Of a stretch of DNA of 40,638 nt, positions 166 to 39,252 are shown in pieces (the stretch's first letter is position 1; the number at the start of each line of letters is the position of its first letter). Location: the IMG/VR virus record IMGVR_UViG_2778261641_000011, one strand, 5' to 3'. The translations under genes and the position numbers were made by a program. The notes under the pieces are model-generated. The model was not told the origin of the DNA. It saw only the letters and a program-made list of their open reading frames with translations, and did not search any database. The stretch is from a virus (Duplodnaviria > Heunggongvirae > Uroviricota > Caudoviricetes).

Positions 166-408
166 TTAGTAACGCCAGCGGTCATAACGCTGATATTTCG
201 GCACTTTTGGTGCTTTAATCGCCTTAATAACCCACACCACCGCAATCGCCAGTAGTAACCACGGCAGCAACTTAATCATCAATGCCAGCATACCGCCGAG
301 GAACATAATGGCCGTCGCCACAACCAGCGCGGCGATAATGCCCAGCAACGAAACGCCGGTGACCATCAGCATGACAAAAAAGCCAATCACAAAAAGTAGT
401 TCCAGCAT
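166..408 (-). CDS. pspG: Phage shock protein G (small inner-membrane protein)
   Basis: The 80-aa translation MLELLFVIGFFVMLMVTGVSLLG...KYQRYDRWRY matches PspG. The longer track ORF 166..618 is an upstream in-frame extension that overlaps the dusA 3' end. Host flank, not prophage. Confidence 0.8.
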   Translation of the reverse strand: MLELLFVIGFFVMLMVTGVSLLGIIAALVVATAIMFLGGMLALMIKLLPWLLLAIAVVWVIKAIKAPKVPKYQRYDRWRY

Positions 409-541
409 GATGCTCTCCCAAATATGAAATCTCTTGCTGGCATTACAAGAATCATGCCAAAAATAATCTATTGATTTAACAGCAAAACGCCCCGCGACGG
501 TGCGCAGGGCGTGGTGAATTTGACTACTTTTTGGTGAAAAG

Positions 542-1579
542 TTAACGCTTATCCGCCACCAGTTTGAGCGCGTGTTCCAGCACATTAATGTCTGCACCCG
601 CTTTATGGGCATTTTCACTTAAATAACGCCGCCACTGCCGCGCGCCAGGAATACCCTGGAACAAGCCCAACATATGCCGGGTAATATGGCCGAGATACGT
701 CCCCTGGCTGAGTTCACGCTCAATGTACGGATACATGGCGCGCACTACCGCCACCGGATCGGCATCGGTATCCGAGGAACCAAAGATCTCCCGGTCTACT
801 GCCGCCAGAATACCCGGATTCTGATACGCCTCGCGCCCGACCATCACGCCATCCATATGTTGCAGGTGTGCTTTGGCCTCTTCCAGCGACTTGATACCAC
901 CGTTAATCGACATTGTCAGATGCGGAAAGTCACGCTTCAGTTGATACACACGCGGATAATCGAGCGGCGGGATTTCACGGTTTTCTTTCGGGCTTAACCC
1001 CGAAAGCCAGGCTTTACGTGCGTGGATGATAAACATCTCACACTCGCCTTTGCCGGAAACAGTGTTGATGAAATCGCAGAGAAATTCATAGCTGTCCTGG
1101 TCATCGATGCCAATACGCGTTTTCACCGTCACTGGAATCGACACCACATCGCGCATCGCTTTCACACAGTCGGCAACCAGCTGCGCATTACCCATCAGAC
1201 ACGCACCAAACATGCCGTTCTGCACCCGGTCAGACGGGCAGCCGACATTCAGGTTGATCTCATCATATCCACGCGCTTCTGCCAGCTTCGCACACTGTGC
1301 CAGCGCCGCCGGATCGCTACCGCCGAGTTGCAACGCTACCGGATGTTCTTCTTCACTGTACGCCAGGTAATCACCTTTACCGTGAATAATCGCCCCTGTG
1401 GTCACCATTTCGGTATACAGCAACGTATTGCGGGAAAGCAGACGCAAGAAATAGCGGCAATGTCTGTCCGTCCAGTCGAGCATAGGAGCAATGCTAAACC
1501 GAGAATTCCAGTAAACACCAGTTTTTTCAGGCATCACGCTGGTTTGATTAATTTTTTGTGTTTCATGATTATCGTGCAT
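542..1579 (-). CDS. dusA: tRNA-dihydrouridine synthase A; N-terminal ~32 codons are prophage-supplied
   Basis: 345-aa ORF with TIM-barrel Dus motifs ([13 protein letters not shown], catalytic Cys region). The 5' end (1484-1579) lies inside the prophage-derived att repeat. Alternative start at the downstream MPEKTG Met is possible. Confidence 0.88.
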
Positions 1580-1585: not shown

Positions 1586-1610
1586 ACATTTCAGGCTATT
1601 TTTCTCGCAT

Positions 1611-1648
1611 TAGGTTCCCGCACAGGTTCCCACGTTTTATGGGAACCC
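1611..1648. promoter_or_regulatory. Clustered GGTTCCC repeats (two direct, one inverted) upstream of int; candidate integrase arm-type binding sites
   Basis: ggttccc at 1613-1619 and 1625-1631, inverted gggaacc at 1641-1647. The same motif recurs beside attR at 39088-39094. Confidence 0.4.
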
Positions 1649-1667
1649 GAAATAACGAGGTCGTGTA

Positions 1668-2765
1668 ATGGCGTACTATAACATAGAGAAACGACTAAAA
1701 TCCGATGGCACACCACGCTATCGCTGTAATGTGATTATCAAAGAAAAAGGTGTTATCACTTACAGGGAAAGCAAAACATTCCCTAAACATGCTCATGCCA
1801 AAACATGGGGCACACAGAAAGTGATGGAATTAGATCTATATGGCATTCCATCATCAAATGCAGTTGACGGACTTACAGTCCGTGACTTACTACACAAATA
1901 TTTAAATGACCCAAATGCCGGAGGTAAAGCAGGCCGTACTAAAAGATATGTGCTGGAACTGCTTATGGATAGTGACATCTCCGCGATCAAACTATCTGAA
2001 CTGACAGAAAATGACGTAATTGAACATTGCAGGCTAAGAAACAACGCTGGCGCAGGTCCAGCAACAGTCAGCCACGATGTTAGTTATCTTGGCAGTGTTC
2101 TGGATGCGGCCAAACCTGTATACGGAATTAATTACACATCAAACCCGGCGAAAAGTGCTCGTCCATATCTACTTAAACTTGGTTTGATTGGTAAATCAAA
2201 CCGTCGTAATCGTAGACCAGCATCTGATGAACTGGACATGCTCATTGAAGGCCTTCAACAACGATCTACTCATAAATGCTCAAAAATTCCGTTCGTTGAT
2301 ATCCTCAAATTTTCTGTGTGGTCCTGTATGCGAATCGGAGAAGTATGCCGGTTACGATGGGAAGATCTCGACCAGGAACAAAAATCTATACTCGTAAGAG
2401 ACAGGAAAGATCCACGCAAAAAGGAAGGCAACCACATGAAAGTAGCCTTGCTTGGGGAAGCCTGGGATATCGTCCAACGACAGCCCAAAAAATCGGAATT
2501 CATTTTTCCATATAACAGCACTTCTATTACTGCGGGATTTCAGAGGGTAAGAAGCAAATTAGGTATTAAGGATCTGCGATACCATGATTTGCGTAGAGAA
2601 GGGGCAAGTCGCTTATTTGAGGCTGGTTTTAGTATTGAGGAAGTAGCCCAGGTTACAGGGCATCGTTCATTAAACGTGCTATGGCAGGTATATACCGAAC
2701 TGTATCCGAAATCTTTACATAATCGTTTTGAAGAGCTCCAAAGGAGCAGAAATAAGACCCCTTGA
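1668..2765 (+). CDS. Tyrosine recombinase / site-specific integrase of the dusA-targeting type
   Basis: 365-aa ORF directly adjacent to attL. C-terminal catalytic region has the HxxR ... Y signature (HDLRREGASRLFEAG...LWQVYTELY). SD acgagg lies upstream of the ATG. Confidence 0.9.
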   Translation: MAYYNIEKRLKSDGTPRYRCNVIIKEKGVITYRESKTFPKHAHAKTWGTQKVMELDLYGIPSSNAVDGLTVRDLLHKYLNDPNAGGKAGRTKRYVLELLMDSDISAIKLSELTENDVIEHCRLRNNAGAGPATVSHDVSYLGSVLDAAKPVYGINYTSNPAKSARPYLLKLGLIGKSNRRNRRPASDELDMLIEGLQQRSTHKCSKIPFVDILKFSVWSCMRIGEVCRLRWEDLDQEQKSILVRDRKDPRKKEGNHMKVALLGEAWDIVQRQPKKSEFIFPYNSTSITAGFQRVRSKLGIKDLRYHDLRREGASRLFEAGFSIEEVAQVTGHRSLNVLWQVYTELYPKSLHNRFEELQRSRNKTP

Positions 2766-2813
2766 CACTGTTTATCCATACAGTTAAAAATAATACTGTA
2801 TACAAACACAGTA
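2766..2813 (+). promoter_or_regulatory. Two tandem LexA (SOS) boxes over a sigma70-like promoter for the dinI-like gene
   Basis: CTGT-N8-ACAG motifs at 2768-2783 (CTGTttatccatACAG) and 2796-2811 (tACTGTatacaaacACAGta). A perfect -35 TTGACA sits at 2762-2767. Confidence 0.6.
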
Positions 2814-2826
2814 TAGAGGGACTTTT

Positions 2827-3075
2827 ATGCGTATTGAAATCTGCATAGCCAAAGAAAAAATGACTAAAATGCCAACCGGTGCTGTGGATGCGTTAAAGGA
2901 AGAATTAACCCGACGCATCAGTAAACGTTATGACGATGTAGAGGTGATCGTAAAAGCCACCAGCAACGATGGCCTTTCTGTTACACGCACCGCAGATAAG
3001 GATTCTGCAAAAACTTTTGTTCAGGAGACTCTGAAAGATACCTGGGAATCTGCTGACGAGTGGTTTGTTCACTAA
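2827..3075 (+). CDS. dinI: DinI-family damage-inducible protein
   Basis: 82-aa product [11 protein letters not shown]...[16 protein letters not shown] closely resembles E. coli DinI (MRIEVTIAK ... QETWESADDWFV). LexA boxes lie upstream. Confidence 0.85.
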
Positions 3076-3140
3076 TTAACACGTAAAATCGGTAACGGCT
3101 GGAAATCATTCAATAATCGCACTATCGAAAGTTCGCCAGC

Positions 3141-3180
3141 CAGCCGCAGCACGTTCTTGCATACGACGTGGCTGCGGCTT
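3141..3180. terminator. Hairpin between convergent dinI-like and invertase genes (putative bidirectional terminator)
   Basis: Imperfect inverted repeat cagccgcagcacgt ... acgtggctgcggct. No strong U-tract, so weak. Confidence 0.3.
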
Positions 3181-3218
3181 CCAACATTAGACAAATAACT
3201 CTTTAAATTGCTTTTAAA

Positions 3219-3782
3219 TTATTTCGTTTGAATGCCAGTAACAGGAAATCGTTTATATAGGGTTGATAGCCCAACGTTATAGATACGTGCAACATAACGC
3301 CGTGATTTCCCTGCCGCTATGAGCGCTCCCATCTGTTGCCACTGCTCGTCGCTAAACTTCGGTCTACGCCCACCAATCCGGCCTTTGGATCTGGCAATAG
3401 CCAAACCAGCTAAAGTTCGCTCGCTATTCAAATCAGATTCATACTGCGCAGCAGAAAGAATATTACGGAAATTATAGCGACCACTTGCTGTTTTCAGGTC
3501 TACGCCATCTGTAATACTCCGAAAATTAACACCTTTTTCGTGCAGATTTTGAAACATCAATAGCGCATGCAGCACATTTCTCCCTATCCGATCTAACTTC
3601 CAGACAATCAACTCATCTCCACTTTTCATCACCGTAATTAATTCCTTTAACACAGGGCGATTAGCTGTTCTGCCACTGGCATATTCTTCATAAATTCGCT
3701 CACAGCCAGCTGACTCAAGTGCAAGACGTTGCAACTCTGTATCCTGATGATTTGTTGATACACGAACATACCCGTAAATCAT
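3219..3782 (-). CDS. Serine recombinase, DNA invertase of the Gin/Hin/Pin/Cin family
   Basis: 187 aa, MIYGYVRVSTNHQDTELQR...VWKLDRIGRN...GRIGGRRPK...STLYKRF, near colinear with Hin/Gin. Catalytic Ser in the RVST motif; C-terminal HTH. Confidence 0.9.
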   Translation of the reverse strand: MIYGYVRVSTNHQDTELQRLALESAGCERIYEEYASGRTANRPVLKELITVMKSGDELIVWKLDRIGRNVLHALLMFQNLHEKGVNFRSITDGVDLKTASGRYNFRNILSAAQYESDLNSERTLAGLAIARSKGRIGGRRPKFSDEQWQQMGALIAAGKSRRYVARIYNVGLSTLYKRFPVTGIQTK

Positions 3783-25190: not shown

Positions 25191-26243
25191 TTATTTCCCC
25201 ACCAGTTCACTTACCTCTTTCACCGTCTGATTAAACCGCTCTGACTCAAGTTCAACACCTAACGCCCGACGCCCCAGCGCCATTGCCGCTTTTATTGTGG
25301 AACCGGATCCCATAAAGAAATCAGCAACCAGATCGCCTTGTCGACTACTGGCACTGATTATTTGCCGGAGCATATCCGCAGGCTTCTCACACGGATGTTT
25401 ACCCGGGTAGAACTGAACGGGTTTATGCGTCCAGACGTCGGTATAAGGCACGGAGACTGATACGGAGAAATAGCGCCGGAGAGATTTAAACTCATCCAGC
25501 AATTCAGAATATTTGCGATTCAGTGAATCATAAGATGCCACCAGCTGGTGGTGTGGTTGTTCCAGTTGTTGTTCCTGAAACTTCTCTGCCGCTATACGGG
25601 AAAACAGTGCCTGTAACTTCCGATAGTCAGCCTCATTCGGCAACTGCCACTGACTGGCACCAAACCAGTGGGAAACCATATTTTTCTTACCTGTGGCTTC
25701 GGCAATTTGTTTTGCCGTTATACCCAGTTCGGCACGAGCATCCCTGAAATACGATATCAGCGGTGCCATTATGTGCTGTTTGAGTTCCCTTTCTTTTGCC
25801 GCATAGCCGTCACTTTTGCCGCGATATGGCCCCTGGTAATGTTCAGCAAACAGAACGCGCTCTGTGGCAGGAAAATATGCGCGCAGACTTTCTTTATTAC
25901 ACCCATTCCAACGTCCGGACGGCTTCGCCCAGATGATATGGTTAAGCACGTTGAAACGTTCACGCATCATGATCTCAATATCAGATGCCAGGCGATGCCC
26001 ACAGAACAGGTAAAGGCTTCCGTCAGGTTTTAACACCCGCCAGAACTGGGCCAGACAGTGGTCCAGCCACTTAAGGTAATCTTCGTCCCCTTTCCACTGA
26101 TTGTCCCAACCGTTAGGTTTCACCTTGAAGTAAGGCGGATCGGTAACAATCAGGTCAATGGAATCATCAGGCAGGGACTGAATAAAATGCAGGCAATCAG
26201 CGTTGATTAAATCAACACTGTTTATTTTTACAGTATTTTTCAT
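25191..26243 (-). CDS. Orphan DNA methyltransferase (N6-adenine or N4-cytosine, beta class)
   Basis: 350 aa with motif IV TDPPY near the N-terminus and AdoMet motif I FFMGSGST near the C-terminus. No restriction endonuclease gene nearby. Confidence 0.85.
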   Translation of the reverse strand: MKNTVKINSVDLINADCLHFIQSLPDDSIDLIVTDPPYFKVKPNGWDNQWKGDEDYLKWLDHCLAQFWRVLKPDGSLYLFCGHRLASDIEIMMRERFNVLNHIIWAKPSGRWNGCNKESLRAYFPATERVLFAEHYQGPYRGKSDGYAAKERELKQHIMAPLISYFRDARAELGITAKQIAEATGKKNMVSHWFGASQWQLPNEADYRKLQALFSRIAAEKFQEQQLEQPHHQLVASYDSLNRKYSELLDEFKSLRRYFSVSVSVPYTDVWTHKPVQFYPGKHPCEKPADMLRQIISASSRQGDLVADFFMGSGSTIKAAMALGRRALGVELESERFNQTVKEVSELVGK

Positions 26244-26597: not shown

Positions 26598-26723
26598 GTC
26601 TTTTTCCCTTCTGGTTAACATGACATACCAATAACTCTTGTCTAAAAATCCAGCAAGATAAAAAGTCAGTATTCACGACCACCAGCGTGTTTACTGTACT
26701 GCACCAAGTTTACAGGTACAAAA

Positions 26724-29441: not shown

Positions 29442-29831
29442 TCAGGCGGCTGCACCCGCCGTTTTCTCGTACTTACTGATAGTGATCTCGACCTTCCCTT
29501 CCGGGATAACCGGTCCCCACTCCACCAGCATTCTTTTCACCTGACTGTCGTCTTCCCACACACCCGCGTGGGTCAGGGCGTCAAACAGCGCCTTGTTATA
29601 GTTGTCCAGATCGCGGATCCGGTTATCCGGAGGAAACAACACGATCTCCACTGAAGCAGGTGCCGACGTTGGTTTCGGCAGACGACGTAACTGCTCAACT
29701 ATTGCTGCGCACGCCGCGCTCTGGAATTTTCGCCCCGCCGCGCTTATCAGGCTCTTACCAGCAAACGCCCCTTTGTTGGGGTGTCGCCAGTACGTGTTCA
29801 CGCTGGGCGGAAAAGGCAGGATCAGCTTCAT
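29442..29831 (-). CDS. rusA: Holliday junction resolvase RusA
   Basis: 129 aa; RusA motifs (PPSVNTYWRH, RDLDNYNKALFDALTHAGVWEDDSQV). Confidence 0.85.
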   Translation of the reverse strand: MKLILPFPPSVNTYWRHPNKGAFAGKSLISAAGRKFQSAACAAIVEQLRRLPKPTSAPASVEIVLFPPDNRIRDLDNYNKALFDALTHAGVWEDDSQVKRMLVEWGPVIPEGKVEITISKYEKTAGAAA

Positions 29832-30154
29832 ACTTTCAGGTCCCTCTCATGTAACCAGTGGGTTGCACGCAGCCTTGCGTTTTCCTCACCGGCAAGCAGT
29901 GCGCGGATAATCCCGACCGCCTCGCTGTCGTCGTCCTTCACCGCGGTATGAAGCGTTATCCCCCGGGCCACGCCACGCTTTATCGTGATGACGCCTTTTT
30001 TCTCCAGTGCGCGAAGATGCTCCACCGCTGCATTCACTGAACGGTATCCCAGCATGGTTGCCACCTCCTGATTGGTTGGCGGGAAGCCACGTTCTTTCTG
30101 GTAAGAAATCAGCATATCCAGCACCTGCTGCTGGCATTGAGTTAACGTCGTCAT
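29828..30154 (-). CDS. LexA N-terminal DNA-binding-domain-only protein (no S24 peptidase domain)
   Basis: 108 aa; aligns with the LexA N-terminus (LTxxQQxVxDxI...PPTxxEvAxxLGyRSxNAAxEHLxALxKKGVIxIxxGxxRGIxL). Lacks the Ala-Gly site and Ser/Lys catalytic domain. Confidence 0.65.
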   Translation of the reverse strand: MTTLTQCQQQVLDMLISYQKERGFPPTNQEVATMLGYRSVNAAVEHLRALEKKGVITIKRGVARGITLHTAVKDDDSEAVGIIRALLAGEENARLRATHWLHERDLKV

Positions 30155-33485: not shown

Positions 33486-34112
33486 ATGGAAACGGTTGGT
33501 CAGCGTATAAAAGCTCTGAGAAGGGTTACCAGAACGTCCCAGAAAGAATTGGGTAAATTTTGTGGAGTAAGTGACGTTGCTGTGGGGTACTGGGAGAAAG
33601 ACATCAATGTCCCTGGTGGGGAAGCACTTTCAAAATTAGCGAAGTTCTTCAATACGTCAATAGATTACATTCTTTATGGTGCTGAGTTTGAAGGCAAACT
33701 CGTCACAAACATGCGCAGAGTTCCTGTAATCTCGTGGGTGCAGGCTGGGCAGTTTACTGAGTGCAGGACAGCAGAAGTGTTTAGTGAAGTAGACAAGTGG
33801 GTAGATACATCATTAAAGATTGGTGATAACTCATTTGCATTGGAGGTTAAAGGCGACTCCATGACTAACCCTAATGGCCTCCCAACAATACCAGAAGGCG
33901 CAACAGTGATTGTAGATCCTGATGCAGAACCCCGGCATGGAAAAATAGTCATCGCTAGACTTGATGGAACAAACGAAGCCACAGTAAAAAAATTAGTTAT
34001 CGATGGCCCTCAAAAGTTTTTAGTGCCATTAAATCCCCGGTACCCCAACATCCCGATCAATGGTAATTGCCTCATCATTGGTGTAGTCAAAGGAGTTCAA
34101 TACGAACTCTAG
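33486..34112 (+). CDS. CI-type prophage repressor (HTH plus S24 LexA-like peptidase domain)
   Basis: 208 aa; N-terminal HTH (TSQKELGKFCGVSDVAVGYWE); Ala-Gly site (VQAGQF); Ser in GDSM and Lys in TVKKL. Confidence 0.85.
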   Translation: METVGQRIKALRRVTRTSQKELGKFCGVSDVAVGYWEKDINVPGGEALSKLAKFFNTSIDYILYGAEFEGKLVTNMRRVPVISWVQAGQFTECRTAEVFSEVDKWVDTSLKIGDNSFALEVKGDSMTNPNGLPTIPEGATVIVDPDAEPRHGKIVIARLDGTNEATVKKLVIDGPQKFLVPLNPRYPNIPINGNCLIIGVVKGVQYEL

Positions 34113-39129: not shown

Positions 39130-39252
39130 TCAACAACGGTACATCCTATCGAGCATTGGTGCAACGCTAAACCGACCACTCCAGTGAACGTCAGTTTTTT
39201 CAGGCATTGCGCTGGTTTGGTTGATTTTTTGCATTTCAGAATTACCGTGCAT
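39130..39252 (-). pseudogene. dusA: Displaced original 5' end of host dusA (attR), fused to phage sequence
   Basis: Encodes MHGNSEMQKINQTSAMPEKTDVHWSGRFSVAPMLD, about 75% identical to the N-terminus of the intact dusA, then diverges into RMYRC-stop at the crossover core. Confidence 0.7.

Follow-up and report, generated by a model that had tools for sequence, protein, structure and literature searches.

Two predicted LexA operators in a mobile dinI-like cassette beside the integrase of an Escherichia coli prophage

DinI-like genes under LexA control are known from the chromosome of Escherichia coli and from several temperate phages. The chromosomal dinI of E. coli K-12 (b1061) is LexA-controlled, with a single box over the -10 hexamer (TTGTCA ... 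ACCTGTATAAATAACCAGTA). The dinI homologues of the Gifsy prophages have their own promoters, with one LexA box each, 19 nt before the ATG (PMC3121763, PMC8072944). Damage-dependent control requires this box, and exposure to mitomycin C leads to DinI accumulation (PMC3121763); nalidixic acid induces the Gifsy homologues 4.6- to 23-fold (PMC8072944). In this study, a related dinI-like gene was analysed in the virus record IMGVR_UViG_2778261641_000011, a stretch of 40,638 nucleotides (hereafter the window). The window carried an E. coli prophage with the gene directly after its integrase gene.

LexA-repressed phage genes with a DinI-like module also include Tum of phage 186 and its split versions in PSP3 and Fels-2 (PMC3121763). 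PMC7556043 describes the dinI-like genes of phiKO2 and Serratia phage OS31 in the same way, and cites LexA regulation for the phiKO2 gene. According to PMC3121763 and PMC7556043, dinI-like genes of the 186, PSP3, Fels-2, phiKO2 and OS31 type often lie past the tail-fibre genes, in divergent orientation. The gene studied here resembled all of these in its DinI-like module and predicted LexA control. It differed from Tum in lacking the N-terminal antirepressor half of about 70 amino acids, and from OS31 in lacking a translationally coupled second gene. Each of the Gifsy genes has a single box, is followed in an operon by an antirepressor gene (gfoA or gftA) and irsA, and belongs to a phage whose repressor is not cleaved. 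The present locus had two boxes, no downstream gene and a self-cleaving repressor of the S24 type.

The locus is very probably a self-contained SOS cassette, consisting of a sigma-70 promoter, two LexA operators around its -10 hexamer, a ribosome-binding site, a gene for a DinI paralogue and a trailing hairpin (Table 1). The initial annotation had described two consecutive CTGT-N8-ACAG motifs overlapping a promoter with a perfect -35 hexamer, immediately before a DinI-family gene and next to the integrase. Sequence reading and a pattern search of the whole window bore this out. Exact matches were found at 2768–2783 (CTGTTTATCCATACAG) and 2796–2811 (CTGTATACAAACACAG), and the only other match was at 26218–26233. 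The expected number of matches was 0.48, and three matches were reached in 1 of 100 shuffles. This promoter and operator region lay 13 nt upstream of the open reading frame (ORF) of the dinI-like gene.

The promoter scan paired the perfect -35 hexamer with an only fair -10, giving 10 of 12 matched positions; an alternative -10, TAAAAA, lay one base upstream with a 17-nt spacer. A promoter at this TTGACA is also annotated in the record of phage mEp460. Box 1 filled the spacer between the hexamers, and box 2 began 3 nt past the -10 and covered the predicted start. Both boxes thus overlapped the core promoter or start as predicted, and would be placed to block RNA polymerase. The two 20-mers did not overlap and were separated by 8 bp; therefore both operators should be bindable at once. 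The chromosomal dinI of K-12 has its single box over the -10, whereas the phage boxes flank it. The cassette promoter was also considered as a simple copy of the host dinI promoter. This was rejected by alignment, in which the -35 had the same position and the operator layout was different. The two-operator layout is a modest variation on the single-box layout of the chromosomal and Gifsy dinI genes.

Two observations were made at the left edge of this promoter. The stop codon of the integrase gene (TGA, 2763–2765) lay inside the -35 hexamer of dinI, and the recombination boundary of the cassette was at the same hexamer. LexA bound directly past the int stop could in principle hinder completion of int transcripts.

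Scoring with a LexA matrix had been proposed as a check of the two sites. A count matrix was built from 18 E. coli operators (PMC3009722, Table 4), and sites were scored by the Berg–von Hippel/Lewis heterology index (HI). These values come from an 18-site matrix, are not comparable to published HI values and are read only against the leave-one-out scores of the training operators, which had a mean HI of 6.65 and a maximum of 12.8. Box 2 (2.82) and box 1 (5.77) both fell inside this range, and the score of box 2 was on par with the umuD, recN and tisB class of operators. The consensus TACTG(TA)5CAGTA was matched at 17 of 20 positions by box 2 and at 15 of 20 by box 1. Across the window, box 2 ranked first, a site in a methylase gene second and box 1 third; the next sites were far weaker (8.6, then 10.7). 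Sites with HI of 6 or less numbered three in the window and none in 300 dinucleotide-preserving shuffles of it. Both boxes were therefore within the score range of established operators and far above background. The cassette is almost certainly inducible by DNA damage.

Conservation of the operators was investigated in 60 related loci, drawn from phage records, from IMG/VR contigs and from the genomes of E. coli and Shigella; they gave 23 distinct promoter variants. A protein search of genome contigs gave four near-identical Escherichia/Shigella loci and added no diversity. A viral contig search gave 567 relatives; 80 loci were kept and were mostly at least 93% identical, so that the 23 variants are of limited depth. 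The most diverged copy had about 72% DNA identity, which sets a further limit on the depth of the test. Both boxes were present in 58 of the 60 loci and in 22 of the 23 promoter variants. Two loci, L091 and L092, were considered as box-less counter-examples and rejected; they were 5′-truncated dinI remnants without the first 10 codons and the promoter.

Substitutions in the boxes fell mostly in the AT-rich centres and outer flanks, and those of box 1 mostly in the central spacer. The CTG/CAG arms were unchanged in all variants except that of BP-4795, whose box 1 ends in ACAA and not ACAG. One variant class had CTGG in place of CTGT, a form also found in ruvA and cho. The sequence TAAAAAT was invariant across all cassette variants. 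The arms were selectively conserved across the diverged copies. The box centres were 28 bp apart in this locus; in the BP-4795/Stx class the distance was 29 bp.

The 82-aa product matched the Pfam DinI family over its full profile (PF06183, positions 1–63 of 63) with E = 1.1e-19 and 70.9 bits against a cut-off of 24.2, in agreement with the family named in the initial annotation. It also matched phrog_189, 'RecA filament binding protein DinI' (E = 5.7e-31), aligning only to positions 71–149 of the 151 in that profile. Alignment to E. coli DinI (1GHH, 7YWA) was end to end, with E = 3.7e-13 and about 47% identity. A single-sequence AlphaFold model with a predicted local distance difference test score (pLDDT) of 77 showed the elements E2-8, H17-34, E39-45, E50-53 and H58-80. 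The top Foldseek matches to the model were 1GHH and 7YWA (E = 1e-5, TM 0.64–0.68), and the next match had E = 0.06. The model was consistent with the beta-alpha-beta-beta-alpha fold of DinI. The protein thus resembled the product of K-12 dinI in length and predicted fold, and the residues that contact RecA were retained.

In the RecA–DinI structure obtained by cryo-EM, a hydrophobic pocket of L13, L21, W71, W77 and F78 takes RecA F203, and E24, E69 and D76 form an acidic patch (PMC9926225). The aligned residues of the phage protein were M15, L23, W73, W79 and F80 in the pocket and E26, D71 and E78 in the patch. Five of these eight positions were identical and three were conservative replacements. 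The score against NCBIfam NF007893, the equivalog model of chromosomal DinI, was 73 bits with a cut-off of 111. By these sequence scores the phage protein is classed as a DinI-like paralogue and not as the chromosomal orthologue, and its RefSeq name is likewise DinI-like.

The boundaries of the cassette were examined by comparison with other phages. Homology to the dinI regions of Stx phages, BP-4795, CP-1639 and others began exactly at the -35 hexamer, and the 60-nt sequences upstream of the cassette fell into 10 clusters at 80% identity. The common start and the unrelated upstream contexts therefore define a mobile unit of promoter, operators and gene, that is, a horizontally mobile and self-contained phage 'moron'. 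In other phages the cassette was followed by unrelated genes, such as nleC on the opposite strand or an 'avirulence' effector. The cassette was found in 1831 of 5426 complete E. coli genomes, about a third, with up to 7 copies per genome.

The same cassette was present in Escherichia phage SKA5 (OR670062) and, as gp21, in mEp460 (JQ182728). Over the int–dinI region (window positions 1600–3300) the identity was 100% to SKA5 and 98.6% to mEp460. Identical or near-identical cassettes were also found in Stx1 and Stx2 phages, BP-4795 (ORF85) and CP-1639. In the Stx and BP-4795 phages the cassette lies beside att repeats or effector genes, unlike here, where its neighbour is the integrase gene, as the initial annotation had stated. 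In the deposited phage and RefSeq records the gene bears annotations such as DinI-like or DNA damage-inducible, and the two LexA operators were annotated in none of the phage records viewed. The cassette is already known in kind and its sequence already deposited; it is an ordinary element.

At the right end, a terminator scan found no canonical intrinsic terminator downstream of dinI. The GC-rich hairpin after the gene may serve the cassette as a terminator or as an end that stabilises the RNA. No plus-strand ORF was found in the 143 bp between dinI and the invertase gene (3076–3218). A noncoding segment of about 97 bp in this interval was common to lambda, HK-type phages and phi80, all of which are without dinI. 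It was 87–97% identical to DNA that follows the tail-fibre genes in lambda, HK629, HK75, phi80 and others. The matching segment of HK633 is annotated as attP, similar to the ykgJ–yagV intergenic region of K-12. At the other end, in phages of the Stx/BP-4795 type, tandem ATGCCCCAT(T/A)G-like repeats preceded the cassette (L004 positions 1–180, L007, L009 and L012). These repeats are possibly integrase arm-type sites at an att end, and they also flanked the dinI remnants in L091 and L092.

The CI-type repressor of the prophage matched HTH_3 and Peptidase_S24, and its translation contained an Ala-Gly site (VQAGQF), the serine of GDSM and the lysine of VKKL. From its sequence the repressor is of the self-cleaving S24 type. 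With this cleavage site and the Ser/Lys motifs, induction is therefore expected by the lambda route, through self-cleavage stimulated by activated RecA (RecA*). The autocleavage domain was complete, and an antirepressor would therefore not be needed.

A mechanism can be proposed from these elements. In an undamaged lysogen, two host LexA dimers on box 1 and box 2 would keep RNA polymerase off the promoter. After DNA damage, RecA filaments on single-stranded DNA would promote LexA self-cleavage and the dinI promoter would open. The very tight box 2 together with the second box would predict low leakiness and a relatively late induction at strong damage. The phage protein would then bind the RecA filament groove like E. 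coli DinI and raise the cellular dose of DinI. The action of DinI is dose-dependent: it stabilises filaments at stoichiometric level and inhibits co-protease activity in excess (PMC6590174). DinI, UmuD and lambda-type CI use the same groove elements of RecA (PMC9926225). Given this dose dependence and the common groove, an extra DinI copy would most plausibly shift the threshold or timing of the slow RecA*-dependent cleavages, those of UmuD and of the prophage's own S24 repressor, during the SOS response. Modulation of RecA-dependent repressor cleavage by the phage DinI is plausible, since the repressor has an S24 domain, the RecA-contact residues are kept, and DinI and CI use a common groove. 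The effect on CI and UmuD cleavage might be in either direction. A literature search turned up no published work that tested whether a DinI from any E. coli prophage affects CI cleavage or the induction of Stx phages.

Several points weigh against this reading. LexA binding, the transcription start and damage induction at the locus are predictions, and the -10 of dinI is weak, with 4 of 6 positions matched. The two spacings of 28 and 29 bp do not indicate strict helical phasing or obligatory cooperativity of two LexA dimers. The hairpin has no U-tract, so the end of transcription is uncertain. The score under the NCBIfam equivalog cut-off means that identical biochemistry to chromosomal DinI cannot be assumed. 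In the one genetic test available for relatives, non-polar deletions of the dinI homologues carried by Gifsy-1 and Gifsy-3 left prophage induction unchanged (PMC3121763). The Gifsy phages use antirepressors and not cleavable repressors, which limits the comparison with those deletions (PMC3121763).

Table 1. Positions of the cassette elements and other features in the window
Feature	Position	Strand	Remarks
pspG	~166–410	-	E. coli chromosomal DNA at the start of the window
dusA	542–1579	-	Pfam Dus match
att core direct repeat (attL/attR)	1519–1534 and 39192–39207		16 bp
Tyrosine integrase of the dusA-inserted prophage	1668–2765	+	PF00589 match; outside the mobile cassette
-35 hexamer TTGACA	2762–2767	+	Perfect; left edge of the mobile cassette
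LexA operator 1 (box 1), predicted	2766–2785		20-mer CACTGTTTATCCATACAGTT; fills the -35/-10 spacer; HI 5.77
Alternative -10, TAAAAA	2785–2790		17-nt spacer
-10 hexamer AAAAAT	2786–2791	+	18-nt spacer; promoter scan
LexA operator 2 (box 2), predicted	2794–2813		20-mer TACTGTATACAAACACAGTA; covers the predicted start, ~-5 to +15; HI 2.82
Shine–Dalgarno GAGGGA	2816–2821	+	5 nt before the ATG at 2827; GAGGGA or GGAGGG in variants
dinI-like gene	2827–3075	+	82 aa; Pfam DinI PF06183; predicted RecA filament groove binder
Segment shared with lambda, HK-type phages and phi80	3083–3180		~97 bp, noncoding
GC-rich hairpin	3142–3179	+	14-bp stem; -22.6 kcal/mol; no U-tract
Pin/Gin-type invertase	3219–3782	-	Convergent with dinI
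Invertase and invertible segment	3219–6007		Resolvase and HTH_7 domains in the serine invertase
Dam-type DNA methylase	25191–26243	-
LexA box in the methylase gene	26216–26235	-	TACTGTAAAAATAAACAGTG; HI 5.3
Weaker LexA-like site	26636–26655		TCTTGTCTAAAAATCCAGCA; HI 8.6
LexA DNA-binding-domain-only protein	29828–30154	-	108 aa; PF01726; phrog_362 'transcriptional repressor'
CI-type prophage repressor	33486–34112	+	HTH_3 and Peptidase_S24 (E = 1.6e-27)

The prophage, of about 37.7 kb, was inserted in the 5′ end of dusA. A replacement 5′ end of dusA was supplied by the phage, and this piece is annotated as a 'tRNA-dihydrouridine' fragment in SKA5. Beyond the cassette, the Pin/Gin-type serine invertase adjoined an invertible segment in which two alternative tail-fibre C-termini, with their chaperones, lie in opposite orientations. 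This segment was followed by Mu-like tail genes, a head of the HK97 type and a lambdoid early region.

Other LexA-related elements were observed elsewhere in the prophage. A 108-aa protein consisted of a LexA DNA-binding domain only, and could bind the same SOS boxes while being uncleavable. A third strong LexA box lay 8 nt past the ATG of a Dam-type DNA methylase gene, within its first ten codons; this gene is situated between the Q antiterminator and the lysis genes. The box was conserved in phage phiNP of Citrobacter. It was kept as TACTGTTAATTTAAACAGTG in Morganella phage IME1369_02, though the residues encoded there changed from KNTVKINSV to KSTVNLNSV. In the late operon, the box may act as a roadblock formed by LexA or as an operator. 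A weaker LexA-like site was located just past a terminator-like hairpin that follows Q; the site lay upstream of a small ORF on the minus strand starting near 26598. Only the LexA-domain protein and the methylase box point to something out of the ordinary here. It is doubtful, on present evidence, that the prophage carries a small LexA-box regulon of its own, comprising the dinI double operator and the methylase box, which would be read by host LexA and by the non-cleavable phage protein; the latter would restore repression of SOS promoters, both phage and host, at the onset of lytic growth.

Other explanations of the cassette were compared with these data. The motifs might have arisen by chance in AT-rich promoter DNA, with the gene constitutive or read through from int; the AT-rich region, the weak -10 and the co-oriented int gene directly upstream would agree with this. 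The shuffled windows contained not one site of such strength, let alone two 28 bp apart, and refuted a chance match statistically. The arms were also intact across variants, bar one base in BP-4795, while the spacers varied, and homologous cassettes occurred without int upstream. This explanation can hardly be credited. The cassette might instead derive from, or be a modified form of, an antirepressor operon under LexA control, like Gifsy dinI–gfoA/gftA–irsA or 186 Tum, with induction brought about by an antirepressor that is fused to dinI or encoded after it. Gifsy dinI is the first gene of its operon, the DinI-like half of the 186 protein is fused to an antirepressor (PMC3121763), and the partial match to the longer PHROG profile would fit such an origin. 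The interval after dinI held no plus-strand ORF, the protein had no N-terminal extension, and the genes after the cassette in other phages were unrelated. Together with the complete autocleavage domain of the repressor, this largely refuted both the Gifsy-type arrangement and a Tum-like fusion, and descent from an antirepressor operon is very improbable.

The boxes might also, or mainly, be read by the LexA-domain protein of the prophage, which would not cleave itself and, expressed from the early operon, would re-silence the dinI promoter and other LexA-box promoters in lytic growth. GIL01 gp6 is a precedent for a phage homologue of the LexA N-terminal domain with a regulatory role, according to PMC6182141. 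The prophage protein matched PF01726 (LexA_DNA_bind) with E = 1.7e-18, had no S24 domain, and had a recognition helix (NAAVEHLRAL) almost identical to that of E. coli LexA (NAAEEHLKAL); three strong LexA boxes were present in the prophage. The proposal is drawn purely from sequence, and dimerisation of the 40-residue tail is a supposition. Operator binding by the LexA N-terminal domain is weak when the C-terminal domain, which mediates dimerisation, is missing; this counts against such a role. The literature search found nothing relevant on such proteins of lambdoid phages, and this role is considered unlikely. It is a serious possibility that the cassette is only a lysogenic-conversion or host-fitness moron, in which an extra SOS-induced DinI protects the lysogen and takes no part in the lysis–lysogeny decision. 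The benefit would come from lower SOS mutagenesis or toxicity and from improved survival when DNA-damaging drugs are present. The cassette is autonomous, lies at the edge of the prophage and apart from the phage operons, and occurs in phages with unrelated neighbours and immunity types, and the Gifsy deletion result is in line with such a role. A prophage DinI-like gene is among the gene groups tied to the evolution of quinolone resistance in E. coli (PMC10575684), and prophage DinI-like genes of Citrobacter rodentium are listed as fitness cargo (PMC6456863). A host-fitness role is compatible with an effect on CI cleavage, and the two are not mutually exclusive; unlike the Gifsy phages, this prophage has an S24 repressor, which has to enter the RecA groove used by DinI. 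Host fitness alone is as serious a reading as an altered timing or threshold of CI and UmuD cleavage.

The dose of DinI is of interest where the cassette is repeated, a question that is not newly exposed by this locus. In strains of the enterohaemorrhagic E. coli type, with up to seven SOS-inducible copies of DinI, the joint dose could measurably shift RecA* activity. The shift would concern RecA* activity towards LexA, UmuD and prophage repressors of the S24 type, among them the repressors of Stx phages. Such a shift would affect the induction of toxin phages and SOS mutagenesis under antibiotics.

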